From NCBI GenBank assembly GCA_964616915.1, contig CAZTSL010000019.1:1-38184 (forward strand): a DNA stretch of 38,184 nucleotides. The letters run 5' to 3'. The DNA is from an uncultured bacterium. Lineage in GTDB: Bacteria > Myxococcota_A > CAZTSL01. The position numbers were made by a program, and so were the translations under genes. Below the pieces are notes generated by a model. It ran no database searches, had not been told where the DNA came from, and was given only the letters and a program-made list of their open reading frames with translations. Shown in pieces: positions 1 to 32,768 of the stretch; the first letter of the stretch is position 1, and the number at the start of each line of letters is the position of its first letter.

Positions 1-414
1 CCGGAGCAGTCTGGTCTCACTGCTTGCTTTCCCTGCTGCTTCGCTCCAGGACGCATCAAGATAGCCTTCCTCCGTTCGATTGTCAAGATGCACCCCAGGG
101 CAATCCAGGGCAATCCAGGATCGATCCATGAAAGACACACGACGCCTCTCCCCTCACGCTTCTCTCCCATCCCATTCTCCCTGCCGCGACGGAGAGGAAA
201 AGTTTCTGGTGGGTTTCATGGATCGATCCGACGAGACCGTTGCGCTGCGGTGCTCCTTGTGGTAAAATCATACCCCGTAGGATCATCGGCCCGGCGTCAC
301 GATTCCTCCCGCATGGATGCGCGGTGCCGTCTTGCCTGTGCTATGGATGTCACGACCTCCCACGACTCGGTTCATCCCAGCGAGAGAAACGGATTTCCGT
401 TTCGGAGTAGCTCC

Positions 415-6652: not shown

Positions 6653-6695
6653 GGACGATACGATAGAGGAGGGAGGGGGCGTTGTCAATCACTCC

Positions 6696-16727: not shown

Positions 16728-19053
16728 ACGCCTCGACGATCACGGGAACACGAAGCACCACGGCGGGGTCGTGACGTCCCGTGACCCGGATCGTCGTGTC
16801 GCGCTGTTCCCGGAGATCGACACTCGCCTGGGGGCGGGGAATCGAAGGCGTCGGTTTGATCGCGATCTGGAAGATGAGCGGCGCTCCGGTCGAGATCCCG
16901 CCCAGAACCCCTCCCGAATGGTTCGAGCCGAGTTGTACGCTCCCTGCAGGGGAGAGATGGTAGGGGTCGTTGTTCTCACTCCCCCGCCGGGCCGCCGCCT
17001 CGAAGCCTGCACCGAAGGCGACCCCCTTGACCGCGGGGATCGTGAAGAGGTAATGCGCCAGGACCGCATCGAGCGCATGGAAGATCGGTTCACCGATCCC
17101 GATGGGGAGACCGTGGACCTGGCACTCCACGATTCCACCGAGCGAGTCCCCCTCCCGCCGAGCCGCGAGGACCACCGAGGCCATCTTCTCGGAGAGGATC
17201 GGGTCGGGACAGCGAACCGGGCTCTTCCAGGTGGCCTGGCGCGCCTCCTCGAAGGTCGGGATCCGAGGGAGCCGCAGATCGGCGATCTGGCGGACATAGG
17301 CGGCGATCGTGATCCCGTACCCCTGGAGGATCTGTCGGGCGACCGCGCCGGCGGCGACCATCCCCACGGTCATCCGGCCGGAGAGGAAGCCTCCTCCGCG
17401 GAAATCGAAGGCCCCGCCATACTTCCGCCAGGCCGTGTAGTCCCCGTGACCGGGACGCGGCGTATGGCGGAGTCGGATGTATGGAGCGTCGTGCCCGTCG
17501 AGGTTCGGGATCTCGATCTCGATCCTCCCTCCCGTCGTCCGGAGCCGTTCCCCTTCCCGAACGAACCCCTTGCGTAGCAGGAGGGGATCGGGTTCCCGAC
17601 GCTGCGTGGTCAGGAGACCCGAGGGTCTCCGTTTGTCGAGATCGGCCGTGATGGCGCGGTAGGAGATCGTCACGTTGGGGGGGAGCCCCTCGATCCGGAC
17701 CCCGACGCACCGTTCGTGCGAGCCTCCGTAGAGGGTGACCTGGAAATGGCGTCCGATCGGTGCGGTCTCGCTGAGCACCACGGCACCCGAGCGCCGCAGG
17801 TCGTGGAAGAAATCGGGGTACGATTTGTTCACGCACTCCGGCTGCGCGATATGGGTCTCCCCGCCGGCGATCATTCCGGCGATCGCCGCGGTCATCACGA
17901 TGCGGTGATCCCCGGCGGGATCGATCCGGGCGCCCTGAAGGATGGCAGGACCCGAGACTTCGAGGGCATCGTCTTCGACCTCGATCCGGGCACCCATCCG
18001 GGCGAGCATCGTGCAGATCGCCCGGAGGCGATCACTCTCCTTCCATCTGAGGCGTTTCGTGTGCGTGATCCGGGTCGTTCCCTGGGCCTGAGTGGCGACG
18101 AGGGCAAGGAGGGGGACGAGGTCGGGGATGTCGCGCGCATCGATCGTGGTCCCCCGCAACGGGGTACGCCGGGCGATCAGGCGTTCCTCCTCCCTTTCGA
18201 TCCTCCCCCCCATCGCCTGGAGGAGGGGAACGATCTTACGGTCCCCTTGCGTCGATCGGGGGGTGAGGCCGCAGAGAGAGATCTGGGGCCCGGCGAGCAC
18301 GCCCCCGGCGAGCCAGACGGCCGCCGCGGACCAGTCCCCCGAGATGGAGAGCCGCGGCGGGGCCTCGAAGCGCTGCCCCCCCGGGACCGTGAGCGTGTCG
18401 CCCCGCGGGGCGCGGGTGACCTCTACGCCGCATCTTTCGAGGAATTCGAGCGTCAACGCAAGGTAGGGGCGCGACACGGGAGGTGTGGGAAGGCGCAGGG
18501 TTCCCCCCCGCGGCGTGAGGGGGAGCGCGAAGAGGAGCCCCGAGAGGAACTGCGAAGTGATATCCGCCGGGATCTCGATCTCCCCTCCCACGAAGCCCCC
18601 CTCCACGGTGAGGGGAAGCGATGTCCCATGAATCCGTGCCCCCTTGCTCCGCAAGACTTCGAGCAGGGGGACGATCGGGCGGCGGGCGAGATCGGGACGC
18701 CCGGAGAAGTGAATCCGTCCGCCGCACACCGCCGCGATGGGCAGAAGCATCCGGAGCGTCGAGGCGGAGGAGGCGCAATCGATGTGGGCCAGGGCAGGGA
18801 TCCGCTCCACGATCGAGCCCTCTCCGAAGGTGATCGCCTCCTCCGAGATCTGCCAGGAGGCCCCCATCCGTCCGAGTGCATCGAGGGTCGCCTCCGTGTC
18901 CTCGCACAGAAGGGGATGCTCGACCCGGACCGCGCCTGCGGCCAGGGCCGCGCAGATCAGCGCACGGTGCGTCTCACTCTTCGAGGGGGGAACGACGAGG
19001 GTGAAGTTCGGCTCGAACTTCGAAGAACGGATCAGGATCGACAGGTCACTCAT
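16648..19053 (-). CDS. In-frame fusion of 3-phosphoshikimate 1-carboxyvinyltransferase (EPSP synthase, AroA) and chorismate synthase (AroC)
   Basis: ATG at 19053 (MSDLSILIRSS). AroA motifs LVVPPSKSETHRALICAALAAG, GDWSAAAVWLAGG, DHRIVMTAAIAG; the domain ends at about ...YPDFFHDLRRSGAVV. The same frame continues without a stop into a chorismate synthase N-terminus (...GRHFQVTLYGGSHE), with later SLGGIVEC and FRGGGFLSGRMTV motifs. About 800 aa in total. Confidence 0.8.
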   Translation of the reverse strand: MSDLSILIRSSKFEPNFTLVVPPSKSETHRALICAALAAGAVRVEHPLLCEDTEATLDALGRMGASWQISEEAITFGEGSIVERIPALAHIDCASSASTLRMLLPIAAVCGGRIHFSGRPDLARRPIVPLLEVLRSKGARIHGTSLPLTVEGGFVGGEIEIPADITSQFLSGLLFALPLTPRGGTLRLPTPPVSRPYLALTLEFLERCGVEVTRAPRGDTLTVPGGQRFEAPPRLSISGDWSAAAVWLAGGVLAGPQISLCGLTPRSTQGDRKIVPLLQAMGGRIEREEERLIARRTPLRGTTIDARDIPDLVPLLALVATQAQGTTRITHTKRLRWKESDRLRAICTMLARMGARIEVEDDALEVSGPAILQGARIDPAGDHRIVMTAAIAGMIAGGETHIAQPECVNKSYPDFFHDLRRSGAVVLSETAPIGRHFQVTLYGGSHERCVGVRIEGLPPNVTISYRAITADLDKRRPSGLLTTQRREPDPLLLRKGFVREGERLRTTGGRIEIEIPNLDGHDAPYIRLRHTPRPGHGDYTAWRKYGGAFDFRGGGFLSGRMTVGMVAAGAVARQILQGYGITIAAYVRQIADLRLPRIPTFEEARQATWKSPVRCPDPILSEKMASVVLAARREGDSLGGIVECQVHGLPIGIGEPIFHALDAVLAHYLFTIPAVKGVAFGAGFEAAARRGSENNDPYHLSPAGSVQLGSNHSGGVLGGISTGAPLIFQIAIKPTPSIPRPQASVDLREQRDTTIRVTGRHDPAVVLRVPVIVEAFTAAALLDLYLAARSPNPPSPSSTAL

Positions 19054-19085
19054 TGGCGATCTTCCCCTCGCAACCTCCCGTGGCG

Positions 19086-20390
19086 TCAAAACGTGTCACG
19101 GGCAGCACGCCTCCTCGCCGGTTTGGAGAGCGGCGCGGCACCGTTGCCGATGAGGGAGAGGTAGTAACGGCTGGCCGAATCCGTGGGGTCGATGGTAACC
19201 ACTTCCTGAAAGCGTGCTCGAGCCTGACGGATCCGTCCGGAGAAGTAGGCATCGATCCCCGATTCGAAGATTTCCCGGGTCGTCTCCTTGCGTTCGATCT
19301 CCTCCGGGAGGGCGCCGTCGAAGATCTCGTAGATCGAAACGACCTCCTGCTTCCCCTTGACCTGCACCCGTCCGAGTCTCCGGGCGTGGAAATGCTCCGG
19401 TGCCTGGAGGTGGTGGATCACGTTCCCCGAGACGATGAAGGGAACGCCGTAGCGCTTCGTCAGGCTTTCGAGGCGGGCGCCGAGATTGACGGCATCGGAG
19501 AGGATGTCCCCACCGATGCGCTCCTCCTCTCCGATCACGCCGAGCATCATCTTCCCGAAATGGACGCCGATTCCGATGTCGATCGGACGGTAGTTCACTT
19601 TTCGACGGTGCTCGTTGTAGAGCCGCACGGCGCGCAGCTTCTCGATCCCGGCAACGAGCGCCGCATCGGGGTTCTCGGGAAAGACCGCCATGATCCCGTC
19701 GCCGAGGAATTTGATGACGAAGCCTCCGTTTTGCCGGATGATCGGGCTGAGCCGTTTGAGGAAGTTGTTGATGAGGTCGAAGTTCTCCTGGACCGTGAGC
19801 GTCTCCGAGAGCGTGGTGAAATTCCGGATGTCGGAGAACATGACGGCCATCTCGAGATGGATGTGGTCGCCGAGCGCGACTTCATCGATCGCCTCCTTGC
19901 GCAGGAGGTGGAGGAGATCCTTCGGAACGAAGCGCAAGGAGGCCGTCGTCAGCGCCTCGAGCATCTCCATCTGCCGGTGGAGGTTTCTCAGGAGCCGATG
20001 CCGCTCGATCGCGTAGAAGATGCTGCGCCGAAGGAGGTGGTGATCGAAACTCCCCTTGACGAGGTAGTCCTGCGCTCCCTGTTGCACCGCGCGGATGCCG
20101 AGCGCTTCGTCCTTGAGGCCCGTGAGCAGGATCACCGGCACGTGCGGAAACCGCTCGTGGGTCGTCTCGAAGGTCGCCATCCCCCGGCTGTCGGGGAGCG
20201 TCAGGTCGAGGAGGAGGAGATCGAACGGCCGCTCGGCGAGTTTCCCCATCCCCTCCGCCAGGGTGTCCGCCGTGGAGAGGTCGATCGTCGCCGTCTCGCT
20301 CCCATGAACCGTGTAGAGGAGTTCCTGCAGGAGGAAGACGTCGTCGGGATTGTCCTCGATCAGGAGGATATGGATTCCAGCAGCAGCCAC
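19086..20390 (-). CDS. Response-regulator receiver fused to a class III adenylate/guanylate cyclase
   Basis: Chosen start is the GTG at 20388-20390 (V of LVAAAGIHILLIEDNP), with AAGGAG (20399-20404 on the minus strand) 8 nt upstream. The longer ORF to 20834 has no RBS and adds a Pro/Ser-rich low-complexity N-terminus. REC motifs ILLIEDN, DLLLLDLTLPD, VPVILLTG. Cyclase motifs AVMFSDIRNFTTLSE, VIKFLGDGIMAVF, NLGARLESL. Confidence 0.8.
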   Translation of the reverse strand: MAAAGIHILLIEDNPDDVFLLQELLYTVHGSETATIDLSTADTLAEGMGKLAERPFDLLLLDLTLPDSRGMATFETTHERFPHVPVILLTGLKDEALGIRAVQQGAQDYLVKGSFDHHLLRRSIFYAIERHRLLRNLHRQMEMLEALTTASLRFVPKDLLHLLRKEAIDEVALGDHIHLEMAVMFSDIRNFTTLSETLTVQENFDLINNFLKRLSPIIRQNGGFVIKFLGDGIMAVFPENPDAALVAGIEKLRAVRLYNEHRRKVNYRPIDIGIGVHFGKMMLGVIGEEERIGGDILSDAVNLGARLESLTKRYGVPFIVSGNVIHHLQAPEHFHARRLGRVQVKGKQEVVSIYEIFDGALPEEIERKETTREIFESGIDAYFSGRIRQARARFQEVVTIDPTDSASRYYLSLIGNGAAPLSKPARRRAARDTF

Positions 20391-20398
20391 GAGATCGT

Positions 20399-20404
20399 CT
20401 CCTT
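20399..20404 (-). promoter_or_regulatory. Shine-Dalgarno AAGGAG for the GTG start of the REC-cyclase gene
   Basis: Reverse complement of + strand CTCCTT at 20399-20404, 8 nt upstream of the GTG. Confidence 0.5.
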
Positions 20405-20697
20405 GTCCCCCCGGAAGGTGATGAATGCCTTTTCGGGCTCCCAAGGACGAAAGCGAGAAGCAATTTTCGTTCCTCGAATCTCTTCCGGCGCTCACAGGAG
20501 AGAAAAGGGTGGAATATCCGGGGGAACAGGACGCCGGAGGCATCGAGAGGGATGCGATCCAGTGAGGGAGGAGGGGGGAGAAGGCGTACAAAAAACGCAC
20601 ACCTCGCCCTTCAAAGCGACGCAGATCCCCATCCGGGAGGTCGTTCGCCCCCTTCGGTCCTGGCGTTCTCGAAAGGGGCGTTCGGCGATGGGGGAAA

Positions 20698-22092
20698 CTA
20701 CTTGAGACCGGTGTAGGTTCCCCGCTTGAGGTAACGGCCATGCCCCTTTCGGCCGACGTATTTGCAGTCGCGCACGACGACCCTCCCGCGGGAGATGACG
20801 GTCTCGGGGTAACCGGAGACTTCGAATCCCTCATAGGCGCTGTAATCGACGTTCATGTTGTGGGTCACGGGGTTGTGGACGCTGATCGTCTCTCTGCGCT
20901 GGGGGTCGAAGAGGACGATATCGGCGTCGCTGCCCACGGCGATCGTCCCTTTCCGGGGGAAGAGGCCGAACATCTTCGCTGCGGCGGTGGAGGTGATCTC
21001 CACGAAGCGATTGAGCGAGATGCGGTTCTGCACGACGCCCCCCTGGTAGATCAGGGCCATCCGGTTCTCCACGCCGGGCGCGCCGTTGGGGATCTTCGTG
21101 AAGTCTCCGAGGCCGAGTTCCTTCTGTTCCTTGAAGCAGAAGGGGCAGTGGTCGGTGGAGATCGCCTGGAGATCGCCGAACCGGATGCCGCGCCAGAGTC
21201 TCTCCTGGTTCCACTTCTCCCGCAGCGCAGGGGTCATGACGTATTTGGCCCCCTCGAAGCCCTCCTGCTCGTAGCAGGAGATGTCGAGGAAGAGGTATTG
21301 CGGGCAGGTCTCGGCAAAGGCGGGGACGCCCCGGTCGCGGGCGATCGTGACCTGTTCGAGCGCGTCGGAGGAGGAGAGGTGGACGATATAGACGGGAACC
21401 CCCGCCACCTCCGCGATCGCGATCGCGCGGTGGACCCCTTCGGCCTCCATCCGGGTCGGACGGGTGAGCGCATGCCATTTCGGTTCGGTCTTCCCTTCCC
21501 GCTTCGCGATCTTGATGATCTCGTCGATCACGATGCCGTTCTCGGCGTGCATGCAGATGAGCGTTCCATTCTCCCCGGCCTGCCGGAAGGCGCGGTAGAG
21601 CGTTCCATCATCGACGTAGAGGACGCCGGGGTAGGCCATGAAGAGTTTGTAGGAGGTGACCCCCTCCTCCACGAGCCGGCGCATCTCGGGAAGACGCTCG
21701 TCCTCCATGTCCGTGATGATCATGTGGAAGCCATAGTCGATCGAAGCCTTCCCCTCCGCTTTCCGATGCCAGGTGTCGAGCCCTTCGAGCGTGGAGTGGC
21801 CCTTCGTCTGGATCGCGAAGTCGATGATCGTCGTCGTGCCGCCGTGGGCCGCGGCGCGGGTGCCCGTCTCGAAGTCGTCCGCGGAGATCGTTCCGCCAAA
21901 GGGCATGTCGAAGTGGGTATGGGGGTCGATTCCGCCGGGGATGACGAGTTTGCCCGTGGCATCGATCACCTCGTCTGCCGCGATGTCGAGGTGTTCGCCG
22001 ATCAGCGTGATCCGTTCGTCCTCCACGAAGATATCGGCGTGATAGTCGTCCACCGCGGTGACGATCCTTCCATTCTTGATGAGCAGCGACAT
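20698..22092 (-). CDS. Dihydropyrimidinase / D-hydantoinase (cyclic amidohydrolase superfamily)
   Basis: 464 aa. Metal-binding GGIDPHTHF, later carboxylated-lysine region SYKLFMAY and VHLSS, and TDHCPF. AGGAGG RBS 6 nt upstream of the ATG at 22092. Confidence 0.9.
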   Translation of the reverse strand: MSLLIKNGRIVTAVDDYHADIFVEDERITLIGEHLDIAADEVIDATGKLVIPGGIDPHTHFDMPFGGTISADDFETGTRAAAHGGTTTIIDFAIQTKGHSTLEGLDTWHRKAEGKASIDYGFHMIITDMEDERLPEMRRLVEEGVTSYKLFMAYPGVLYVDDGTLYRAFRQAGENGTLICMHAENGIVIDEIIKIAKREGKTEPKWHALTRPTRMEAEGVHRAIAIAEVAGVPVYIVHLSSSDALEQVTIARDRGVPAFAETCPQYLFLDISCYEQEGFEGAKYVMTPALREKWNQERLWRGIRFGDLQAISTDHCPFCFKEQKELGLGDFTKIPNGAPGVENRMALIYQGGVVQNRISLNRFVEITSTAAAKMFGLFPRKGTIAVGSDADIVLFDPQRRETISVHNPVTHNMNVDYSAYEGFEVSGYPETVISRGRVVVRDCKYVGRKGHGRYLKRGTYTGLK

Positions 22093-22824: not shown

Positions 22825-23691
22825 CTACCCTCGTCCTTTCTTCATCCGCGTCGATGCGCAGAGGGGATCGGCACACCGTTTCGAGAGATCCCAGCAGGCG
22901 CGGTGATAGGTCCGGCCGCATTTCCGGCAAATCGCGTACGATTCTCCGGCCGGGATCGGGCCACCGCAGGTGCGGCAGGTCACGCTTCCGGCCGCCCCGG
23001 CAGCCGGGGGGGGCACCGGAGGAGAGATCTCCCCCATAGGACGGGCGGACTGCGCAACGGCGGCTTCTCCATCCAGCAGCGCCAGAAGCAGACGGCGTGT
23101 AGCGCGGATGTAGTCCAGGAGCGCTCCTGTCTCGGAGATGAATCCGAGCTTCGTGACCGTGAGTCGATGATCCTCGAGCTTAAGCGTGAGTTGGCCCTCC
23201 TTCTCGAGGCTCTGGAGGTAAAGGATGAGGGATCGAACCCTCTCCGTGAGGCGATCGAGAATTTCATCGGCCGGATCCCCCTTGACGACGAATTTCTCGT
23301 CGAAGGCCGGATCCCCCGTCTCGATGTCCTGGGCACCGAAGACCTTCGTCAATTGCGAGAAGAAGCCCTGACGCCCGATCTGGAGCCGACAGTCGAGAGG
23401 GACGGGCTCGAAGATCACGTCGGTGAAGTAGGTCTTGTTCTTCCCCCCCGTGGAATGGACCGTCACGGTGGCGCCGATCCCCGGTTTCGGCTCGAAGCGG
23501 ATCTTTGGGAAGGCGAACCACTTCCCCTCCTCGAAGCGGGCGGAGAGGGCATCGGCCACCTCCCGCCAGACCTGCTTGCGTTTCCGGGAAGTCCGGATGC
23601 TCACATAGAGGACGATCGGTCCCACGGTCAAGAAGATGATGATGGGCAAGAACTGAGCGATGACGTCGGGAAGGCCGGTCTGGATGGTCAT
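22825..23691 (-). CDS. Membrane-anchored hypothetical protein with a C-terminal Cys-rich zinc-ribbon / treble-clef module
   Basis: 288 aa. N-terminal TM LPIIIFLTVGPIVLYVSI. C-terminus CRTCGGPIPAGESYAICRKCGRTYHRACWDLSKRCADPLC (CxxC...CxxC...HxxC...C...C). The start overlaps the upstream J-domain gene stop (ATGA). Confidence 0.5.
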   Translation of the reverse strand: MTIQTGLPDVIAQFLPIIIFLTVGPIVLYVSIRTSRKRKQVWREVADALSARFEEGKWFAFPKIRFEPKPGIGATVTVHSTGGKNKTYFTDVIFEPVPLDCRLQIGRQGFFSQLTKVFGAQDIETGDPAFDEKFVVKGDPADEILDRLTERVRSLILYLQSLEKEGQLTLKLEDHRLTVTKLGFISETGALLDYIRATRRLLLALLDGEAAVAQSARPMGEISPPVPPPAAGAAGSVTCRTCGGPIPAGESYAICRKCGRTYHRACWDLSKRCADPLCASTRMKKGRG

Positions 23692-24803
23692 CGTCGTCCC
23701 TCGGATCTTTCCGGTTTCGAAGGCGGACGGGTGCGCTTTGCCTTCAGGTGTTCGTCGTAGCGCTTCCGAAGTTCCGGCGAGGAGAGGACCCGGTGCGCGT
23801 TGATGATCCGCGTGATCACCTCGTCGAGGAGGGGGAGGATCTGGGGCCCGATCCGGCCGTGGTGCCGGTCCGGATGGAAACGCTTGATCGCCCGCGCAAA
23901 GGCCAGCCGGATCTCCACAGGCGAGGCATCGGGATCGATCTCGAGGAGTTCGTAGTAGGTCATCCGCCGGAGCTGGTTGTGCAGATTCACGATCTCGAGT
24001 TCCTCGGCATTCAGCCGGTCGAAGCCGATCCGTTCCCGGTCCACGGCCTCGATGCGAACCTCGATCTGCGCCTTGAGTTCGCGCAAAGCCCGGTCCTGCG
24101 GCTCCTCGGCGAGCGCGTCCTCCACGTACTCGCGGGCGAGATGAATTCGTCCTTCGAGGAGCGCGATCTCGGCCAGATAGCGGTTCGTCAGCTTTTGCGT
24201 TCGGTTGAGCTTCTTGCTGAAGAAGAGGAACTCCTTGGCCTGGCTGAAGTTCTTCTGGGCGCTCTTCTTCTGGACCTGGAAGAGCGCCCAGCCGAGGTAC
24301 ATCGAATAGACCTCGTTGCCCGGATCACACTCCCAGGCCGATCGGAAACACTTGGCAGCCTCCTTCCAGGCATCTTTTTTGATTTCTCCCTGGCCGGCGA
24401 GGAAGTGCTGGGAAGCCTGATAGGCGGCCTCCCGCGTGATCTTTCCGATCGCCTTGCGGATTCTCCGGCGCGCATCGTAGGCGGCCCGGCGCTGGGGGTG
24501 CTGGAGGGTCTCGTAGAGATGAGTGATGTAGTCGAAGAGTTCATCGATCCGCTCCCGGACGGCTGCGGTGACCTTCCGGTAGAAACGGGGATCGCGCAAC
24601 TCGCGGGCAAGCCGATGGTAGGCGATCTTGAGGTCCTGGGGTGTGAAATCGTCGGGGATACCGAGGAATTCGTAGGCATCGAGGTCGATCATCGCCTCGT
24701 GCATCTCGTCGATATGCCGGGAGAAGTCGGCCAGGGCCTCCTGGAATTCGAGCGCACGGGTCCGTCTTGTTGCGGTCGGTCCCTTCGGTTCGTGGTCCAT
24801 CAT
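23688..24803 (-). CDS. J-domain (DnaJ-like) protein: degenerate N-terminal J-like domain, TPR-like middle region and a canonical C-terminal J domain with HPD
   Basis: 371 aa. C-terminal YYELLEIDPDASPVEIRLAFARAIKRFHPDRHHG is a canonical J domain. The N-terminal AYEFLGIPDDFTPQDLKIAYHRLARELRDPRF is J-like but lacks HPD. The start lies 4 nt downstream of the C25 peptidase stop. Confidence 0.7.
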   Translation of the reverse strand: MMDHEPKGPTATRRTRALEFQEALADFSRHIDEMHEAMIDLDAYEFLGIPDDFTPQDLKIAYHRLARELRDPRFYRKVTAAVRERIDELFDYITHLYETLQHPQRRAAYDARRRIRKAIGKITREAAYQASQHFLAGQGEIKKDAWKEAAKCFRSAWECDPGNEVYSMYLGWALFQVQKKSAQKNFSQAKEFLFFSKKLNRTQKLTNRYLAEIALLEGRIHLAREYVEDALAEEPQDRALRELKAQIEVRIEAVDRERIGFDRLNAEELEIVNLHNQLRRMTYYELLEIDPDASPVEIRLAFARAIKRFHPDRHHGRIGPQILPLLDEVITRIINAHRVLSSPELRKRYDEHLKAKRTRPPSKPERSEGRR

Positions 24804-24807
24804 CGTC

Positions 24808-27800
24808 CTATCGTCTTCTCAGCCGGCGCCAGAGGCGGAACTCGAGGAGGAGGAGGAGGAGCGCCGAAGGGAGGAGCCGCCTGGGCGCCACGGGGACGAT
24901 CCCGCAGCATCCCCCCCCCCCTTCCCCGCTCGATGTCTCCCCTGGGGAAGGGGACGCGCTCTCCACTGTGGTACCGGAAATTTCCCCGCTCGTCAACCCA
25001 CCCTCCGTCGGTTCACCGGAGAGGGGCCCCTCCTCGCTCGTCCCCCCCGTCTCGTCGGTGGTCGAGGGATTCTCGATCGGGTCGCAGACATCACCGATCC
25101 CGTCCCCATCGCCATCCTCCTGCCCCGGATCGAAGGTCTCTGGGCAGTCGTCCTCGTCGTCGCCGACTCCGTCGTTGTCCCGGTCGAAGGGGGAGAGGAG
25201 CCGCAACGCGGGATCCCCGAAGAGGAGGAAGATGTCGTAGATCTGCGCAAAAATCCCGTCGGGCGGCAGGAGCGCCTTTCCCAGGGAGAGGAGGTTGCCC
25301 ATCTCCCGGACGTCCTCCTCGAAAAAACCCCGAAAGAGGTTCTCGTCGAAGACGAAGGCCGCAAAGTCCGTGGACAACCCCGAGGGGGAGAAGGCGCCGA
25401 TCACCCCACCGGAGGGCGTCGCCAGGAGGAGTTCGGCGAGCGCGTCGGAGGATGGAGAGGGAATGATGAAGTACCCGTTCAAACAGTTGAGCGTAAGAAG
25501 GAGGGGGAGACGAAGCCCGTTCTGAAGGGCCGGGACGTCGAAGCGCGTGAAGATCTGCTCGTGCGCCCAGACTTCCGTGTTCCCATGCCCCAGATAGTTG
25601 AGGAAGACCCCTCCGCCGTTCCACGCAGAGAGGATCTCGTCGTGCGTCCCTTCCCCCTGCTGGGAGAGATAGATCTTCTCTGTCTCGTGGGAGGGGGGTA
25701 CCCGCTGCGCGAGGGCGTTCGATTCGTTCTCGAAGTCCCCCGCCGCATCCGCGTTGTCGGAAACGAGGATGACCCGCCGCACGAAGGGTTGCAGGTTCCC
25801 GTTCAGCTCATAGAGGAAGATCTTGTCCGTGATCGCCTCGAGTTCCTCGGCCGTGTTGACCGGCAAGCGTCCGATCGCCATGTCGGGGACGAGATCGACA
25901 CCAGACACGGCAACGAGCACGTTGTCGGAAACGGTCTTGAGGAACTGCGTGGGCACGAGATCGGGGGGGATGTAGTTCGGAACGTTCGTGTTCTGGTAGT
26001 TCTTGAAGTCGAAGTGTCCATCCCCGACGAGGAGGACGTAGCTCGGCACCGGCGTGAGCCATTCCTCGAAGGCGTAGCGGAGGAAGGCGGCGATCGCTCG
26101 CGGGGTTTTCCGGCCAAAGGAAAAGGTGTCGTAGATCTCCTCGACGTCGATCACCTTGACGGAAAGTCCGCGTTCCCGGTGAAAGAGGGCGATTCGCTCC
26201 GCCCCCGTCCGGAAGTCCCGGGGCGTGATGATGAGGTAGTCGGCCTGGTTGCTCGGGAGGGTGAGGGTGGAGGGGATCGCCAGGCGAAGACGGGGAGGCC
26301 TTCGCATCCGTTCCCGCGAGAGGGCGAGATAGCTGCGGGACTCCTCCCCCGACGTGGCGAAGGTGAGCGTCTTCTCCCCCCCCTGCGCCGTGATTTCGCT
26401 CCCTTCGACCCGGCGGGGATGGTCCGGATCGCTGATGTCGTAGAGGAAGAGTTCGTTCCCCGTAAAACCGGAGATCGCGATCCGATGCGCTCCCCCTTCC
26501 CCCACGAAACGGAGTTCGTCCCCCTCGGCAACGAAGCGGCGGGAGAGGTCGATCTCGACATGGTTGAGGAAGAAGCGGTCCACCACCGCCTCGTTCTCCC
26601 CCGCGGCCCGGATCCGGAGGAGGTTCTCCCCCTCGACGAGCACCCCGGGATCGAGCGGGAACTCGACCGTGGCCTCGGTGAGCCCGTCGAAGCCGAAGGA
26701 GGTGAAGGAGAATCCGCCGATCTCCCCCGCGATCCGGTGATCCTCGGTCATCGAGTTCTGATCCGTGGTCTCCCCCCGCGCCGTGATCCGCAGGCGTGCA
26801 GGCGCATCTTCGTCGAAGGGGGGGAGTTCGAGACGAAAGGTCGATTCGTTCCCCCCGATCCGACTCCAGAACCAGTTGTCGTCCTTTTCCCCCAGCCCGA
26901 CATTGAAGTGCGCCTCCCGGTTCTCCTCGAAGTGGAGCGTATCGGGAAAGGTCTCGAGGCGCGGTTCGTCGTGCGGGGTGCCATCGACCGTTCCGATCCG
27001 AAGGCCGGGGGCGTCCCCCTCTACGAGACGATAGACCTCGAAGCGGAGGAAGGGGTCTTGCGGCGCTTCCCCGTAGAAGCGGATCGCGGAAGGGGTCTCC
27101 TCGATGGCGACCGGTTCCCCCCCCCGGAAGAGCTGGAGGTGGGAAGGATCGGTGATGGGGAACCCCGCTTCCTCCATGGCGGAAAGGTCGAGTTCATGGA
27201 ACCCCGTCTCCTCCACGAAGATGTCCAGAACCGTCTCTCCTTCGGTTTCGCTCGTCTCCACCCCTTGCGTCTCCACGCGTCCGAGCCAGCGCTCCGAGGG
27301 GTTGACGACCGCAGCGTCGTAGAGGGCGGCGAAGGGACGCGCCGCCTCCTGGGCGGGAATCCGTCGCTCCGTGGGGACCGGATCGGTGAAATCGAGGGAG
27401 AGACGCAGCCGTCGGTAGAAGTGGAGGCGCTCCCCTTCCGGGAGGAAGGGATTCACCCGCACCCGTGCGATCTTGAGATGCCCAAAAAAGACGATATCCC
27501 CGATTTCCCCCAGGCACTTCGGGAGCCCTCCCTTCCCATCGGGAGGGAGGGGGAAAGGAATCGCCGCCTCGAGGGGGGTGATGCGCAGGGAGACCCGGCG
27601 GCCGGGCAGGACCCCGACGTTGAGAAAGAGGCGGGGCAGGGGGGAGCGGCCTTCGTTTCCCTGGAGGATCGTCATCCCCCTGCCGGCCGGCAGATCGAGC
27701 CGTATCCCCCCATCGACATGCCGGGGGAGACCGAGATCGAGATCGATGACGACCCCCTGCTCCGAGGAGGAAACGACCCGAACCCCTTCCCCCCGCGCGT

Positions 27801-27879
27801 TCCGGCCCCCTCCGAAGAGCCAGAGGAGGATGCAGAGCATCCCGATCTTCACGCCGGATCTCGATTTCCTTCGATTCAT
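24808..27879 (-). CDS. Secreted peptidase C25 (gingipain-like cysteine peptidase) family protein with C-terminal thrombospondin type-3 Ca-binding repeats and a Cys + TM + Arg-rich sorting-signal-like tail
   Basis: ATG at 27879 (MNRRKSRSGVKIGMLCILLWLFGGG, signal peptide). C25 catalytic dyad context NYLGHGNTEVW (His) and LLLTLNCLNGYF (Cys). TSP3 repeats DRDNDGVGDDEDDCPETFDPGQEDGDGDGIGDVCDP. C-terminus GGGGCCGIVPVAPRRLLPSALLLLLLEFRLWRRLRRR. Confidence 0.7.
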   Translation of the reverse strand: MNRRKSRSGVKIGMLCILLWLFGGGRNARGEGVRVVSSSEQGVVIDLDLGLPRHVDGGIRLDLPAGRGMTILQGNEGRSPLPRLFLNVGVLPGRRVSLRITPLEAAIPFPLPPDGKGGLPKCLGEIGDIVFFGHLKIARVRVNPFLPEGERLHFYRRLRLSLDFTDPVPTERRIPAQEAARPFAALYDAAVVNPSERWLGRVETQGVETSETEGETVLDIFVEETGFHELDLSAMEEAGFPITDPSHLQLFRGGEPVAIEETPSAIRFYGEAPQDPFLRFEVYRLVEGDAPGLRIGTVDGTPHDEPRLETFPDTLHFEENREAHFNVGLGEKDDNWFWSRIGGNESTFRLELPPFDEDAPARLRITARGETTDQNSMTEDHRIAGEIGGFSFTSFGFDGLTEATVEFPLDPGVLVEGENLLRIRAAGENEAVVDRFFLNHVEIDLSRRFVAEGDELRFVGEGGAHRIAISGFTGNELFLYDISDPDHPRRVEGSEITAQGGEKTLTFATSGEESRSYLALSRERMRRPPRLRLAIPSTLTLPSNQADYLIITPRDFRTGAERIALFHRERGLSVKVIDVEEIYDTFSFGRKTPRAIAAFLRYAFEEWLTPVPSYVLLVGDGHFDFKNYQNTNVPNYIPPDLVPTQFLKTVSDNVLVAVSGVDLVPDMAIGRLPVNTAEELEAITDKIFLYELNGNLQPFVRRVILVSDNADAAGDFENESNALAQRVPPSHETEKIYLSQQGEGTHDEILSAWNGGGVFLNYLGHGNTEVWAHEQIFTRFDVPALQNGLRLPLLLTLNCLNGYFIIPSPSSDALAELLLATPSGGVIGAFSPSGLSTDFAAFVFDENLFRGFFEEDVREMGNLLSLGKALLPPDGIFAQIYDIFLLFGDPALRLLSPFDRDNDGVGDDEDDCPETFDPGQEDGDGDGIGDVCDPIENPSTTDETGGTSEEGPLSGEPTEGGLTSGEISGTTVESASPSPGETSSGEGGGGCCGIVPVAPRRLLPSALLLLLLEFRLWRRLRRR

Positions 27880-28269
27880 CTTCACCTCGTCGTCTCTCCG
27901 GTGCGCGTGCACCCTGCCGGCTCGATCTCTCCATCGTATCACAATTCCCTTCTGCCTGTCATGGGCGTTCCGGATTGATGCCAGGGCCCCGGCAAAGTCC
28001 AGATCCGGCGCCCGGGGATTGGCCGTCGCGCCGAGGGCAGGAGAACCGGCGAGACGGCGGCAGGTGGCGTAGGAGGTAAGATGCTAGGATGAAGCAAGAA
28101 TGAAGAGATTTGGGCGCACCCGTCCCTCTCCACGCCTGGTGAGGGAGAGCGGCGAGGTGGGTGAGGCGTGGCAGAGGCGTCGGGTGGTCAGGCCAGGCCG
28201 ATCAGGCGCAGCGGGCGTCCGGCAGCGCTATGCCCAGGATGCTCTCGATGCTTTGGCGGAGGCCGCGGC

Positions 28270-28470
28270 GATTGCAAGGAGGAGGCGAATCCGGAGCCCG
28301 AGGACCGGGATCCGGACGGTATCGGGGATGCGTGTGACCCTCGTGTCCGCTGTGGTGGTCGTTCGAGCCTCGTGCTTCCGGGAGATTCCCCCTTCCCCAC
28401 CGAATATCTCCTCGTTGGTCTCGTCCTTGCTTTCACCCGCTACCGGATGCGCCGCGCCCGGTCGGGTCGA
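28270..28470 (+). pseudogene. Relic of the 3' end of a paralogous secreted-protein gene (TSP3 repeat + sorting-signal-like tail), in frame upstream of the metalloprotease start
   Basis: Translation in frame +1 gives ...CKEEANPEPEDRDPDGIGDACDPRVRCGG...DSPFPTEYLLVGLVLAFTRYRMRRARSGR, which closely parallels the C25 tail DGDGIGDVCDP... + hydrophobic stretch + RR tail. There is no signal peptide or RBS for a free-standing gene, and no stop before the metalloprotease ATG. Confidence 0.35.
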
Positions 28471-28612
28471 TCTCTCCTTCTCTCCCATTTCGATTCCTTC
28501 CGTGGGGTGCGGTGCGTGGCTGCGTCCCTCGACGCGGCGAACCGCAAACCGGTGCCCTGCCCTGGCAAAGGGGACGCTTCGCGCCTTTGTCCGGTCGGGG
28601 ACCCTTTTCCCA

Positions 28613-28619
28613 AAGGAGG
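28613..28619 (+). promoter_or_regulatory. Shine-Dalgarno AAGGAGG for the metalloprotease gene
   Basis: AAGGAGG lies 7 nt upstream of the ATG at 28627. Confidence 0.55.
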
Positions 28620-28626
28620 AAAGAGG

Positions 28627-31431
28627 ATGGGAGGAAAAACCTTCGTTTCCCTCACATGGATGCTCACCACCCTGTGGTGGATCTCCGTCACCGCGGCGTA
28701 CGGGGGGGGGAGGATGGCAGGGAGTCGGATCGTCGATCCGGGCATCTTCGTCGATCCCACGGCCGATCCCCTCCATAACGGGAAAATCGTGATCGCGCAT
28801 TATGCCGATGCCGCGGGGATCTCCGACCGTGATCTCGTCTCCGAGGTCGTCCGGGTGGGGAAGGGCGCATACCACGTCCGCTTCCATCAGTACTACCGGG
28901 ACGTTCCGGTGGCCTTCGCCTACCTCGGCGTCCACTACGACCGGCAGGGGCGGGTGCAATTGATCGAGGACCGGACGATCGGAGGGCTTCATCTCTCTGT
29001 TGAGCCGGAGATCCCGGCGACCGAGGCCCTTTCGATCGCTCGAGGGGCGATCGGCATCGTGCGTGAGGCGCGAGGACGGCCGAAGATCGCTCTCCGGATC
29101 GATCCGAGGATCGGCAAGGGGCGCCTCGTCTGGGAGATCCGCTGGCCCACGCTCGAACCCCTCGGCGACTGGCACCTCTTCATCGATGCGAAGCGGGGGA
29201 GGGTGATCGATCGGTGGAACGAACTCTTCTTCGACCGGGCCTTCGTCTACGATCCGAATGCGGTGCAGGCGACGAACGATCCGACACTCTCCGACGAAGA
29301 GAATGCCGACACACCGGCGCTCACGGATGCGCGGGTGGAGATTCCGCTCTTTGGCCTTTCCGGAAACCGGCTCGTCGGCCCCTTCGTCGATCTGTGCGCG
29401 ACAGGGATCACGGGGGCATACAAGCCCGCCTGTCAGGCGGCCGATCCCGACGGCACCCCTCCCTACACCTTCGATTTCACCCGTTCCGACGACCGCTTCG
29501 AGGAGGGGATCGTCTACCATGCCATCGATGCTGTGCAACGCTACATCCAGGATACGCTCGGCTTCACCTCGATCAACAACCGATCGATCCCGGCGCATGC
29601 GCACTACTACGACAGTGACAACGCCTTCTACAGTTCGGACGACAAGGGGCTCCACTTCGGAGATGGCGGCGTCGATGACGCGGAGGACGCCGATGTGATC
29701 CTCCACGAGTATGGCCATGCGATCCTCGACGACCAGGTTCCGGGATGGGGGATCGGTTTCCGGACCGAGCAGCGTGCGATCGGTGAAGGGTTCGGGGACT
29801 TCCTCGCCGGGATGTTCAATCTCGACCGGGGAAGCTCCGCGTATCAGGAGACCCAGGATCGGTGGGCCGCGATCGCGGAGTGGGATGCGGTCTCCTACGG
29901 CACGCCGGTACGCGGCACGACGGCCCTTCGTTGGATCGACGGAACGGACGAGACGACCGGCGAGGATATCGGGGCGTATTCGGGGAAACCCAGCGAGGTC
30001 CACGACGATGGCCGCTACTGGTCCGCGATGTTGACCTGTATCTTTCGCGACCTGGGGCGGGAGGCGACCCTCGAGCTGGCCCTGGAGAGCCACTTCTACC
30101 TCCTCCCCGACATGAGTGACCAGGCCTTCGAGAATGCGGTTTCTGCGATGATCCTCGCCGACGAGACGCTCAACGGGGGGGCCAACCGGGAACGGATCGC
30201 GGAGTGTGCGATGGATCGGAACCTGATCGAATGCGTTCCACTGCCCGCTCCGAGCTTCCTCTCCCCGTCGGGAGGGGAGCATCACCAGGCCGGCGAGGAG
30301 GTGACGATCGCCTGGAGTCGGGAAGGAATTCCCGATGAGGCGACCTTTTCGATCGACTTCACCGATCGCTGCGATCCCTTCCTCTTCGACGACATGGAGG
30401 GGGAACGCTCGGGGTGGAGCGTATCGCATGGCGCCGGGCTCAACGACTGGATGCCCGTCTCCACCCGTTTCCACTCCCCTTCCCATGCCTTCTTCGCGGC
30501 CGGCAGCGACCGGGTGAGCGATCAGTATCTCGTGCTCGAGCCCTTCACCGTGCCGGCGGATGCGCACCTGCGCTTCCATCACTTCTACGACCTCGAGGAA
30601 GGATTCGACGGGGGGGTGATCGAGTTCAGCATCGACGGCGGGCCCTTCGAGGACGCGGGGCTCATGATCGAGGAGAATGGCTATCCCGGCACGATCGTGT
30701 CGGGTACGTGGAGTCCGATCGGCGGCCGTGGCGCCTTCACGGGGGAGAGCCACGGTTTCATCGAGACGGTCGTCGATCTCTCCGCCTTTGCCGGTCACCA
30801 GCTCTCCCTCCGTTTCCGGATGGCTTCGGACCGGATCCTCTCTTCGGAGGGATGGTACGTGGACGATGTCGAGGTGACGGATGGAAGCTGGCAAAACGTC
30901 GTGGCCCAGACCGCGCCAGGAACGACGAGCCTCACATGGCGCCTGCCGGAGGTGGAGAGCGATGCCGCATGCTTTCGGATCTCCATGATGGCGGGGGAAT
31001 GCGAGAGCACCCCCGGGGTACGGAGTGCCCCCTTCGTGATCCTTTCCGGTGATCCGCAGGATGCCGACGGGGATGGGGATGGCGTTCCCGATCTCCACGA
31101 CGACTGCCCGGAGGATGCGAACCCCGACCAGGCCGACGCGGACGGGGATGGCGCGGGGGACGTCTGTGACCCCTGTCCCGCCGACAACCCCGATGATCCC
31201 GACGGGGATGGGGTATGCCAGGGGAGCGACAACTGCCCGGAGGATGCGAACCCCGACCAGGCCGACGCGGACGGGGATGGTCTCGGGGATCCCTGTGATC
31301 CCGAGGTCACCTGTGCCCTCTTTCCCGGCTTTTTCCCCGATCGGTATGCGCGTTGCGCGATGATCCTCCTCCTCCTCGTTTCCCCTTTCCTTCTCGGCGT
31401 ATCGAGACGCACGCGGCCGCCTTGCCACTGA
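28627..31431 (+). CDS. Secreted zinc metallopeptidase, M36 fungalysin / M4 thermolysin-like (HExxH + GEGxGDF), with C-terminal TSP3 repeats and a Cys + TM + Arg-rich tail
   Basis: Signal peptide MGGKTFVSLTWMLTTLWWISVTAAYG. Zinc motif ILHEYGHAILD followed by AIGEGFGDFLAG (third-ligand Glu region, closest to the fungalysin GEGWGDF). Propeptide/PepSY-like N-terminal region. C-terminus DDCPEDANPDQADADGDGAGDVCDPCP...CALFPGFFPDRYARCAMILLLLVSPFLLGVSRRTRPPCH. Confidence 0.75.
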   Translation: MGGKTFVSLTWMLTTLWWISVTAAYGGGRMAGSRIVDPGIFVDPTADPLHNGKIVIAHYADAAGISDRDLVSEVVRVGKGAYHVRFHQYYRDVPVAFAYLGVHYDRQGRVQLIEDRTIGGLHLSVEPEIPATEALSIARGAIGIVREARGRPKIALRIDPRIGKGRLVWEIRWPTLEPLGDWHLFIDAKRGRVIDRWNELFFDRAFVYDPNAVQATNDPTLSDEENADTPALTDARVEIPLFGLSGNRLVGPFVDLCATGITGAYKPACQAADPDGTPPYTFDFTRSDDRFEEGIVYHAIDAVQRYIQDTLGFTSINNRSIPAHAHYYDSDNAFYSSDDKGLHFGDGGVDDAEDADVILHEYGHAILDDQVPGWGIGFRTEQRAIGEGFGDFLAGMFNLDRGSSAYQETQDRWAAIAEWDAVSYGTPVRGTTALRWIDGTDETTGEDIGAYSGKPSEVHDDGRYWSAMLTCIFRDLGREATLELALESHFYLLPDMSDQAFENAVSAMILADETLNGGANRERIAECAMDRNLIECVPLPAPSFLSPSGGEHHQAGEEVTIAWSREGIPDEATFSIDFTDRCDPFLFDDMEGERSGWSVSHGAGLNDWMPVSTRFHSPSHAFFAAGSDRVSDQYLVLEPFTVPADAHLRFHHFYDLEEGFDGGVIEFSIDGGPFEDAGLMIEENGYPGTIVSGTWSPIGGRGAFTGESHGFIETVVDLSAFAGHQLSLRFRMASDRILSSEGWYVDDVEVTDGSWQNVVAQTAPGTTSLTWRLPEVESDAACFRISMMAGECESTPGVRSAPFVILSGDPQDADGDGDGVPDLHDDCPEDANPDQADADGDGAGDVCDPCPADNPDDPDGDGVCQGSDNCPEDANPDQADADGDGLGDPCDPEVTCALFPGFFPDRYARCAMILLLLVSPFLLGVSRRTRPPCH
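31103..31280 (+). repeat. 49-bp perfect direct repeat, two copies (31103-31151 and 31232-31280), encoding duplicated TSP3 repeat units CPEDANPDQADADGDG
   Basis: Read directly: ACTGCCCGGAGGATGCGAACCCCGACCAGGCCGACGCGGACGGGGATGG occurs twice, 129 nt apart, inside the metalloprotease gene. Confidence 0.9.
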
Positions 31432-31601: not shown

Positions 31602-32768
31602 ATGGGCAAGTGGCGCGTTTCTCTCCTCTTCCTTCTGATCGGGCACGTCTTTCTGGTGCGGGACGCCTCTGGCGGGGCGTTCCGGCACCTCACCGCCCGG
31701 GAAGCGGGGATGGGGGGGGCCGGTGTTGCGCTGGCGGAGGGGGGGCTTGCCCCATACTGGAACCCGGCCCGCCTCGCGGAGGGTGGGGAGGTCGATCTTC
31801 ACCTCGAATTGGGAAGCAGCTATGAGAACCGCAACGACTTCCTCGCGCGCACCGATGCCGCGATCGCGGCGGTCAACCAGGCGATCGAAACGGAGGCGTT
31901 CGCGGACATCGCCGTGGCGGTCGCCGCCGTGGAGGCGCTGGGAGGGGATTTCGCCCAGATCGAACCGAATGTTTCCCTGGGCCTGCGGTGGGCGCGCTAC
32001 GCCCTCCACTTCGTCTCCTACGACACGGCTGCGGCAGGGGTGTCGGGGGTGACCTTCCTCCCCGACCTTCCCGGGGAATACAGCGCCAACGTCTCCGGTC
32101 TCCAGATCGGCGAGATCGCGCTGAGCCACGGCCGCCGGATCCGCTCCGGTGGACCTTCCGTGGGGTTGAGCCTCAAGGCGATCGGAGGGGTGGGGATCGA
32201 GGGACATGTTCCCCTTCGGACGATCGACCGGATGGAGAGCTTTCTGCGGGAGGAGGCGGCCGGCATCGCGTTCAACGGCGTCGCCTTCACCTTCGATCTG
32301 GGGCTTTCCTATCCCCTGGCCAACGACCGGGTCGCGATCGCGATCGTTGGGAAGAATCTGACCGCTCCCCGTATCGATGTGGGGGGAGGGGAGACGGAGA
32401 AGTTTCCTCCGATGGTCCGGTTCGGGGTGGGGGGGTGGATCGCCCCGTGGTGGCGGGTCGAGTTCGATCTCGACGCCACACGGAATACCCGCCGTCTCGG
32501 TTTCGACGCCGTGGAGGGGACGGTCGAGGAGGTCACGACACGGGAGGTGAGCTTCGGTTCCGAGTGGCTCCTGACCCACCGGTGGGCCAGCGCCACACTT
32601 CGTTCCGGGATTTCGAACACCCTCCGGGGGGGAGAAGGGCGGATCACCGCAGGATTGGGCCTGCGCTGCTTTTTTCTCGAGATCTCCGCCGCCGCAGGCA
32701 CGAATTTCGACTTCGATATCGAAGCAAGCGGCTTCGGTCAAATCGGTGTGATGATCCGTTTCGAGTGA
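31602..32768 (+). CDS. Putative outer-membrane beta-barrel protein (TraF_2 / FadL-like fold guess) with signal peptide
   Basis: ATG at 31602. Signal peptide MGKWRVSLLFLLIGHVFLV. Alternating amphipathic strands rich in Gly and aromatic residues. N-terminal GMGGAGVALAEGGLAPYWNPARLA motif and C-terminal ...QIGVMIRFE (aromatic near the end) are consistent with an OM barrel. Lies 170 nt downstream of the metalloprotease on the same strand. Confidence 0.45.
   Translation: MGKWRVSLLFLLIGHVFLVRDASGGAFRHLTAREAGMGGAGVALAEGGLAPYWNPARLAEGGEVDLHLELGSSYENRNDFLARTDAAIAAVNQAIETEAFADIAVAVAAVEALGGDFAQIEPNVSLGLRWARYALHFVSYDTAAAGVSGVTFLPDLPGEYSANVSGLQIGEIALSHGRRIRSGGPSVGLSLKAIGGVGIEGHVPLRTIDRMESFLREEAAGIAFNGVAFTFDLGLSYPLANDRVAIAIVGKNLTAPRIDVGGGETEKFPPMVRFGVGGWIAPWWRVEFDLDATRNTRRLGFDAVEGTVEEVTTREVSFGSEWLLTHRWASATLRSGISNTLRGGEGRITAGLGLRCFFLEISAAAGTNFDFDIEASGFGQIGVMIRFE

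Follow-up and report, generated by a model that had tools for sequence, protein, structure and literature searches.

Tripartite C-terminal sorting signals that contain a cysteine constitute a described class, which comprises MYXO-CTERM and JDVT-CTERM as well as Synerg-CTERM and CGP-CTERM (Haft 2023, bioRxiv 10.1101/2023.06.07.544157). CPBP (Rce1-like) intramembrane proteases have been proposed as the processors of these Cys-type signals, a role shown experimentally for MYXO-CTERM (Guo, Haft & Wall 2025, PMC11980579), the signal reported to be universal in Myxococcota (PMC11980579). MYXO-CTERM has a length of ~34 residues, its helix, as a rule, lacks Pro and charged residues, and its short and divergent sequence makes lineage-specific models necessary (Haft 2023, bioRxiv 10.1101/2023.06.07.544157). 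Its clients in Myxococcus xanthus include, as given in the legend of Table S1 of PMC11980579, proteins with TSP_3, FTP and Zn-metalloprotease architectures. Here, two divergently transcribed protease genes of an uncultured bacterium of hot-spring (Jinata) origin, encoding a C25 cysteine peptidase (C25) and an M36 metallopeptidase (M36-b), were analysed within a 38,184-nucleotide stretch of DNA (GenBank assembly GCA_964616915.1, contig CAZTSL010000019.1; GC content ~63%), termed the window. Both proteins terminate in the modular C-terminus noted in a first-pass annotation of the sequence, in which thrombospondin type 3 (TSP3) repeats are followed by a tail consisting of a Cys motif, a hydrophobic helix and an Arg cluster. 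This tail most probably represents a divergent local version of a cell-surface sorting tag whose kind is known, and not the mark of a new secretion module.

The host metagenome-assembled genome (MAG) is deposited at NCBI as GCA_003694725.1 (locus tags D6795_), and a sister genome, GCA_003694145.1 (D6812_), displays a DNA identity of 92-95% across the shared parts; both are labelled “Deltaproteobacteria bacterium”. The sequence covered from the two genomes consists of the 38-kb window plus NCBI contigs of 1-7 kb.

Architecture of the two proteases and their tails

The features of the two proteases, and of a relic that carries a third tail, are located as follows.

24808-27879, minus strand: gene of a PorU-like C25 cysteine peptidase, 1023 aa (Pfam Peptidase_C25, E 6e-78)
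25198-26238, minus strand: C25 catalytic domain, with the His in YLGHGN (25579-25596) and the Cys in TLNCLNG (25474-25494)
25078-25185, minus strand: TSP3-type Ca-binding repeat of C25, DRDNDGVGDDEDDCPETFDPGQEDGDGDGIGDVCDP, residues 899-934 (match to thrombospondin-2 in the PDB, 1.4e-8)
24922-25077, minus strand: 52-residue low-complexity acidic S/T/G/E/P linker of C25, predicted to be disordered (from the sequence and from a model with a predicted local distance difference test score, pLDDT, <35 at residues 900-1024)
24811-24921, minus strand: tail T1 of C25, GGGGCCGIVPVAPRRLLPSALLLLLLEFRLWRRLRRR (from the sequence; no NCBIfam match)
28627-31431, plus strand: gene of the M36-b metallopeptidase, 934 aa (Pfam; ATG behind AGGAGG)
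29704-29718, plus strand: HEYGH of the M36-b catalytic domain (from the sequence)
30544-30921, plus strand: InhA-like MAM domain of M36-b (Pfam)
31051-31302, plus strand: TSP3 array of M36-b, ~4-5 Ca-binding motifs, residues 809-892 (Pfam TSP_3, 32.7 bits; cut-off 25)
31303-31428, plus strand: tail T2 of M36-b, EVTCALFPGFFPDRYARCAMILLLLVSPFLLGVSRRTRPPCH (from the sequence; sister orthologue P0134)
28273-28461, plus strand: relic 3' end of a paralogue, M36-a, with the last TSP3 half-repeat and tail T3 (near-identical to the C-terminus of P0014, the sister M36-a)

C25 comprises a signal peptide (the N-terminus is signal-peptide-like), beta-rich N-terminal domains, the C25 domain, a TSP3 repeat, an acidic linker and tail T1. 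The catalytic His and Cys are invariant in an alignment of 11 homologues and, together with the Pfam score, uphold the earlier assignment of a C25 peptidase to the minus strand. Its start, previously set at GTG 27942, was moved to ATG 27879, which gives the 1023 residues of database entry P0138. The “gingipain-like” label was replaced, since PorU fits better in NCBIfam, in phmmer searches of the PDB and in Foldseek comparisons. The best NCBIfam match is PorU (NF033707), with 243 bits over model positions 109-735 of 1095 (cut-off 420), and phmmer retrieved PorU at 6e-14 and RgpB at 7e-11. The AlphaFold model of C25 (mean pLDDT 68, good across residues 215-900) has PorU (PDB code 6za2) as its top Foldseek hit, at 1e-28 over 571-804 columns, while gingipains reach ~1e-17 over ~372 columns and align through the catalytic domain alone. 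The enzyme is PorU-like but is not PorU; both its sequence and its predicted fold are nearer to PorU than to gingipains. PorU, the T9SS (type IX secretion system) sortase, has the beta-rich N-terminal domains, the C25 catalytic domain and the His/Cys dyad in common with it. In contrast, C25 lacks the C-terminal domains of PorU and its T9SS C-terminal domain, for which no model in Pfam or NCBIfam matched, and displays the TSP3 repeat, linker and transmembrane tail instead. In addition, its score lies beneath the NF033707 cut-off, the host does not belong to the Bacteroidota and no T9SS core genes were seen in the DNA examined. The sister C25 orthologue (contig L014, 1193-3522) is split into two overlapping open reading frames (ORFs) of 245 and 560 residues by a frameshift near residue 195; the gene may be a pseudogene, or the split an error of assembly.

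M36-b displays, from the N- to the C-terminus, a signal peptide (again with a signal-peptide-like N-terminus), an FTP/PepSY propeptide, the M36/M4 domain, the InhA-like MAM domain, a small Ig-like domain, the TSP3 array and tail T2. The respective Pfam cut-offs are exceeded by FTP at 33.2 bits, by M36 at 28.5 bits and by M4 at 27 bits, and both HEYGH and GEGFGD are present. The protein thus has the FTP propeptide, the HExxH, the downstream Glu and the Pfam matches of FTP-propeptide/M36 (fungalysin) metalloproteases, in agreement with the M36/M4-like metallopeptidase previously assigned to the plus strand. The start at 28168 chosen then gives way to the ATG at 28627, which, together with its ribosome-binding site, is conserved in the sister genome. 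Matches to NCBIfam families are partial: rhombosortase-dependent M36 (NF038111, 100 bits), myxosortase-dependent M36 (NF038112, 80 bits) and T9SS-dependent M36 (NF038113, 10 bits), with cut-offs of 1700, 1500 and 885, respectively. These families have an M36 core and a MAM-like domain in common with M36-b and exemplify one protease family equipped with the C-terminal tag of each host lineage; in contrast, M36-b is far below threshold, has another tail and displays a much shorter architecture.

TSP3 repeats had been claimed for both proteases, and both have them: the M36-b array exceeds the Pfam cut-off, and the C25 repeat, at 16.5 bits, remains below it but is recognised through thrombospondin-2. 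A further M36 paralogue of the same MAG (P0082, D6795_13970; contig L012, 4498-6876) displays a long TSP3 array and ends in ...GDACAP. No helix or Arg tail follows in P0082, nor is one hidden in another frame past its stop codon. Thus, TSP3 repeats and tail are separable modules.

T1, T2 and T3 (CDPRVRCGGRSSLVLPGDSPFPTEYLLVGLVLAFTRYRMRRAR, within the relic at 28273-28461) are all tripartite, with a Cys motif, a short Leu-rich hydrophobic helix and an Arg cluster at the extreme C-terminus, which bears out the sorting-signal grammar proposed for them. This ending was observed in 3 of the 36 coding-like ORFs in the available sequence of both genomes, namely C25, M36-b and M36-a. The unbroken hydrophobic stretches extend over 13 residues (LLPSALLLLLLEF), ~16 residues (AMILLLLVSPFLLGVS) and, in T3, ~11 residues, and not over the 18-20 initially given; of the two poly-Arg tails reported, the Arg cluster of C25 is present, while M36-b has RRTR alone. 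T2 and its sister orthologue P0134 display a tail identity of 83%, compared with 93-95% in the mature domains. P0134 nevertheless keeps both upstream Cys residues, the helix and RRTR, while one Cys at the cytoplasmic end is lost, a pattern expected of a signal constrained by its properties and not by its exact sequence. T2 and T3 are alike (CDPxVxC) because M36-b and M36-a are paralogous. The likeness of the tails beyond a generic transmembrane segment plus Arg therefore holds for this pair, while T1 has only the grammar in common with them.

Tags of homologous proteases and candidate signal classes

The position occupied by the tail carries other tags in homologous proteases. The two closest C25 homologues end a few residues past a conserved GDPA, with ...AYLPLIFK and ...LYLPMIRR, and the latter (P0003) passes the YLP-box models NF050076 and NF053834; more distant C25 homologues display T9SS-type C-terminal domains. 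The M36 search found 1416 homologues. Many of the closest have YLP-box-type tails directly behind the last Ig-like domain, one of which (P0032) passes the models, and others display, at the same junction, IPTL-like transmembrane tails, SLH domains or Lys/Arg-rich tails. NCBIfam, moreover, has distinct M36 families for proteins dependent on rhombosortase, on myxosortase and on T9SS. Since other lineage-specific sorting tags occupy the same junction, these comparisons argue well, if indirectly, for a sorting tag and against a plain anchor, and the swapping of tags in both families shows that C25 and M36 proteases are habitual clients of the C-terminal sorting system of their host. The YLP-box itself, an ultrashort [YF]LP[LFM]xx[RK] that closes the protein, differs from the present tails in that it has no helix, Cys or Arg cluster; it shares their junction on the closest C25 and many of the closest M36 homologues and is absent at this locus.

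The ending [YFW]LP[LFM]xx[RK] was observed on C25 homologues P0002 and P0003 and on M36 homologues P0017, P0019, P0020, P0022-P0024, P0026-P0028, P0030-P0034, P0038, P0040 and P0042, and at least one homologue with a YLP ending comes from Chloroflexota (Ca. Amarolinea). No paper describing the YLP-box motif was found. PorU-like C25 proteins with a YLP-box could be clients or part of the YLP-box machinery.

The lineage of the host bears on which signal class is to be expected. In the sister genome, a 258-aa gene upstream of M36-a (contig L001, 806-1582) encodes a C-terminal AgmX/PglI “myxo_SS_tail” domain, which scores 69.6 bits where the cut-off is 40; this neighbour of M36-a points to a lineage that looks Myxococcota-like. 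The same gene product resembles the C-termini of GltG/GltJ, a hint that Myxococcota-type gliding machinery may be present in the lineage.

Among the described classes, MYXO-CTERM (TIGR03901, processed by the myxosortases MrtX/MrtC/MrtP) resembles T1-T3 in its C-terminal location and in the order of Cys motif, helix and Arg cluster. A genome that uses it is expected to encode a cognate myxosortase (CPBP core, NF040914) alongside several to dozens of clients. It often has two Cys residues, and the GGGGCCG of T1 displays the adjacent CC also found in TraA. MYXO-CTERM likewise follows a disordered linker or TSP3 repeats, both TSP3 proteins and FTP/Zn metalloproteases are among its clients, and its hosts, members of Myxococcota or Bradymonadales, may include the Myxococcota-like lineage seen here. 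The only hint of a match in sequence joins C25 residues 906-1021 to the terminal part of the model for the MYXO-CTERM protein MXAN_5453 (12 bits, E 0.05). JDVT-, Synerg- and CGP-CTERM also present a Cys ahead of a Leu-rich helix, with an Arg cluster behind it. JDVT-CTERM has a nearly invariant DP ~9 residues past the Cys, comparable to the Pro and charged residues found 7-13 residues past the Cys in T1-T3, and Synerg-CTERM has a Pro within its Leu-rich helix, as does T2 (VSPFLL). In contrast to JDVT-CTERM, the tails have no DP in register (the PD of T2 lies at +8/+9, and its P is lost in the sister), T1 and T2 contain two Cys residues instead of one, no JDVT-CTERM model matches, and the clients number three or more with no CPBP gene adjacent, whereas JDVT-CTERM has one client per genome, located beside the CPBP gene MrtJ. 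The taxa of JDVT-, Synerg- and CGP-CTERM (Pseudomonadota, Synergistota and Thermococcales) also differ from the present host.

The tripartite layout of T1-T3, the Myxococcota-like lineage and the MYXO-CTERM precedent together favour a Cys-type class. The preferred reading, to which we assign a probability of roughly 0.5, is that C25 and M36-b are proteases bound for the surface and that their tripartite sorting signal, divergent and specific to the lineage, is of the Cys type, with its processing enzyme encoded elsewhere. Both proteases would leave the cytoplasm by Sec export. By analogy with TraA of M. xanthus, the helix would then keep the precursor within the inner membrane, its Arg cluster on the cytoplasmic side, the Cys may become lipid-modified, and the helix could be removed by a CPBP-type (Rce1-like) intramembrane “myxosortase” encoded elsewhere. 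The lipid-anchored protease would subsequently be transferred to the surface of the cell, and there its TSP3 repeats may serve as a stalk.

Several observations weigh against this Cys-type reading. No sorting-signal model, TIGR03901 included, matched T1-T3, either as isolated tails (NCBIfam, E<=10) or within the full proteins, and Pfam gave no sorting-signal match to the tails; the comparison with curated models that had been proposed as a check was thus carried out with a negative outcome. Unlike in MYXO-CTERM, the stretch that separates the Cys from the helix core contains Pro and charged residues: from the Cys to the Arg cluster they are P, P, R, R, P and E in T1, P, P, D, R, R and P in T2, and R, P, D, P, P and E in T3. 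In the three tails, ~9, 0 and 17 residues separate the last Cys from the hydrophobic core, a spacing that is variable and longer than in MYXO-CTERM, so that the tails are not alignable on the Cys; the cores, at 11-16 residues, are shorter. The tails are three in number, two of them from paralogues, leaving two that are independent. Finally, the 38-kb window contains no CPBP, exosortase, rhomboid or sortase gene.

The same observations would be accounted for if the tails were plain inner-membrane anchors that hold the proteases facing the periplasm, without processing, the Cys being incidental or disulfide-bonded to the Cys-rich TSP3 repeats. The likeness of T1 to T2/T3 in composition alone and the location of the first Cys of T2 and T3 directly behind the “CDP” of the TSP3 repeat, of which it may be a part, would also agree with such an arrangement. 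However, genuine sorting tags occupy this junction in homologues of both families, and secretion of M36/FTP proteases normally ends in release or in surface display. The Gly-rich CC motif of T1 follows a long disordered linker, as in TraA, and the sister M36-b retains both upstream Cys residues of T2 while losing the one at the cytoplasmic end. A plain anchor is therefore somewhat unlikely, albeit an alternative to be taken seriously.

Processing by another intramembrane enzyme, of the exosortase/PEP-CTERM or rhombosortase/GlyGly-CTERM type, would leave the Cys without a special part and place the signature in a motif beside the helix (FPTE, FPDR, APRR) or in a Gly-Gly (GGGGCC, RCGG). T3, with SPFPTE-YLLVGLVLAFT-RYRMRRAR, is laid out like PEP-CTERM, GG is present in both T1 and T3, and the top NCBIfam match of M36-b is the rhombosortase-dependent M36 family, although through the MAM domain alone. 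In contrast, none of the PEP-CTERM, GlyGly-CTERM, VPLPA, IPTL and other exosortase- or rhombosortase-type models in NCBIfam and Pfam matches any tail, T2 has no GG, and the Pro that precedes the charged residues in T2 is lost in the sister (FFPD to FLTD). This type of processing appears improbable. The description of the tails as unclassified and possibly undescribed was, in turn, overstated, as Cys-containing tripartite signals are already a described class (Haft 2023, bioRxiv 10.1101/2023.06.07.544157).

The intergenic gap and the neighbouring genes

With the corrected start codons (27879 and 28627), the gap between C25 and M36-b measures 747 bp, matching the roughly 750 bp first estimated. 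Besides the M36-a relic described above, it contains the following elements.

27933-27962, minus strand: sigma-70-like promoter match upstream of C25 (1 found, 0.1 expected), inside 84 bp conserved with the sister
27967-28271, no strand: rearrangement junction of ~305 bp, matching neither the sister region upstream of C25 nor the sister M36-a

Neither an Rfam family nor a terminator-like site was identified in the 747 bp. Upstream of C25, homology to the sister stops 84 bp before the ATG, at 27966, and the sister displays a different sequence in the 1.1 kb upstream of its C25. On the M36 side, homology to the sister starts abruptly at ~28271, within a TSP3 repeat. The ~305 bp in between match nothing in the sister contigs or in the rest of the window. 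In the sister, an intact 683-aa paralogue, M36-a (D6812_11080, P0014), lies directly upstream of the M36-b orthologue and is itself preceded by the 258-aa gene together with an SMC/AAA gene rather than by C25. What remains of M36-a in the window is a frame (28273-28461) encoding ...CKEEANPEPEDRDPDGIGDACDPRVRCGGRSSLVLPGDSPFPTEYLLVGLVLAFTRYRMRRAR, which has lost its stop codon (TAG to TCG) and falls within the long ORF earlier used for the M36 metalloprotease. An independent NCBI contig (L002) spans the junction, which is thus not peculiar to one assembly. The gap is therefore, as read from these alignments, a composite of C25-proximal DNA with a promoter-like site, the junction, the pseudogene relic and the old M36-a/M36-b spacer. 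Together with the absence of the C25/M36 pairing from the sister, this composition argues that the divergent adjacency is an accident of recent rearrangement rather than a conserved functional module, contrary to the dedicated protease module that had been proposed to be transcribed from a single intergenic region.

Three neighbouring genes had been put forward as accessory components.

31602-32768, plus strand: beta-barrel outer-membrane protein (OMP) of the PorV/PorQ/TraF_2 superfamily, 388 aa (NF033709, 48 bits, E 1e-12; cut-off 90)
23688-24803, minus strand: protein with two J-domains and tetratricopeptide (TPR) repeats (Pfam DnaJ, 2e-21 in two stretches, plus TPR)
22825-23691, minus strand: protein with an N-terminal transmembrane helix and a C-terminal Prok-RING_1 zinc ribbon (Pfam Prok-RING_1, 31.7 bits)

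The J-domain and zinc-ribbon genes are co-operonic with C25, as claimed: 4 bp separate the C25 stop from the DnaJ start, and the DnaJ and RING genes overlap by 4 bp. An accessory role does not follow, because the two proteins, of which the J-domain protein has no signal peptide, are cytoplasmic or membrane-anchored and operon position is their sole tie to sorting. The J-domains (at ~40-110 and 282-350) flank the TPR repeats in an unusual double-J architecture, and the RING protein also displays a DUF3137-like region.

The OMP gene does follow the metalloprotease, beginning 170 bp past the M36-b stop; its suggested accessory role finds no counterpart among its nearest relatives. A word-indexed search retrieved the OMP alone, and an exhaustive search supplied 250 relatives, of which 63 of 63 sampled match NF033709. 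Pfam classes the three nearest full-length relatives as TraF_2 barrels, and neither a C25 nor an M36 gene lies within 8-10 kb of them; other top matches are annotated “TraF” in MAGs of Planctomycetota and Elusimicrobiota. A single-sequence AlphaFold prediction of the OMP gave a pLDDT of 35 and no usable fold.

These neighbours bear on a further explanation, in which C25 would act as a sortase (transpeptidase) of a PorU/PorV-like module and, together with the OMP, cleave M36-b and attach it to the surface, the tail serving as recognition or export signal. The closer relation of C25 to PorU than to gingipains, with a likeness extending past the catalytic domain, and the match of the OMP and its sampled homologues to the PorV/PorQ model are compatible with such a module, as is the adjacency of porU and porV in Porphyromonas gingivalis. 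However, both proteins score below the respective cut-offs (243 vs 420 and 48 vs 90), C25 is without the C-terminal domains of PorU and the T9SS C-terminal domain, and no partnership with C25 is conserved among the nearest OMP relatives, which are of the TraF_2 type. The closest C25 homologue, likewise, has no such OMP nearby, and the adjacency of C25 and M36-b stems from a recent rearrangement. In addition, a helix-plus-Arg tail held in the inner membrane would lie beyond the reach of an outer-membrane sortase, and C25 itself bears the tail, as a client would. This makes the PorU/PorV module very improbable. A broader form, namely a T9SS-independent surface-attachment system built from a PorU-like C25 and a PorV-superfamily barrel whose clients (M36 and C25 itself) are marked by the tail, is a long shot; if it were true, PorU-type sorting would be far older and wider than the T9SS of Bacteroidota. 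Taken together, the rearrangement, the OMP and the J-domain and RING proteins fail to back the proposal that the proteases belong to a sorting module.

Relatives, other genes of the window and implications

In protein searches, JGI included, no close relatives of C25, the OMP or M36-b were found beyond the two NCBI MAGs, and a scan of the genome collection for M36 returned only an unrelated Desulfovibrionaceae locus. The same OMP gene is present on a Logan contig of run SRR7905022, which derives from the source pool of the Jinata hot spring (PMC12501874).

Elsewhere in the window, an 889-aa protein (4022-6688, minus strand) displays ~12 predicted transmembrane segments and a large central loop, with no Pfam match and a faint NCBIfam likeness to MMPL/HAE3 RND transporters (E ~1e-6). 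A single 815-aa ORF (16648-19095, minus strand) fuses EPSP synthase (AroA) to chorismate synthase (AroC), thus joining two consecutive steps of the shikimate pathway in one polypeptide. Two unusual signalling fusions were also identified, one of TPR, response-regulator receiver and Ser/Thr kinase (1-2151, plus strand) and the other of receiver and adenylate/guanylate cyclase (19086-20852, minus strand).

The locus opens no new kind of system and is less novel than was claimed, and on present data no long-standing question becomes testable through its tails or proteases. If the tail were confirmed as a processed signal, the Cys-type (myxosortase-class) signals would reach into a lineage that is uncultured, thermophilic and deep. 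It would then follow that the class admits Pro and charged residues inserted ahead of the helix, behind the Cys, which would aid the construction of lineage-aware models for surface-proteome annotation, and C25 and M36-b would provide a clean instance, for both families, of the rule “same protease, different anchor”.

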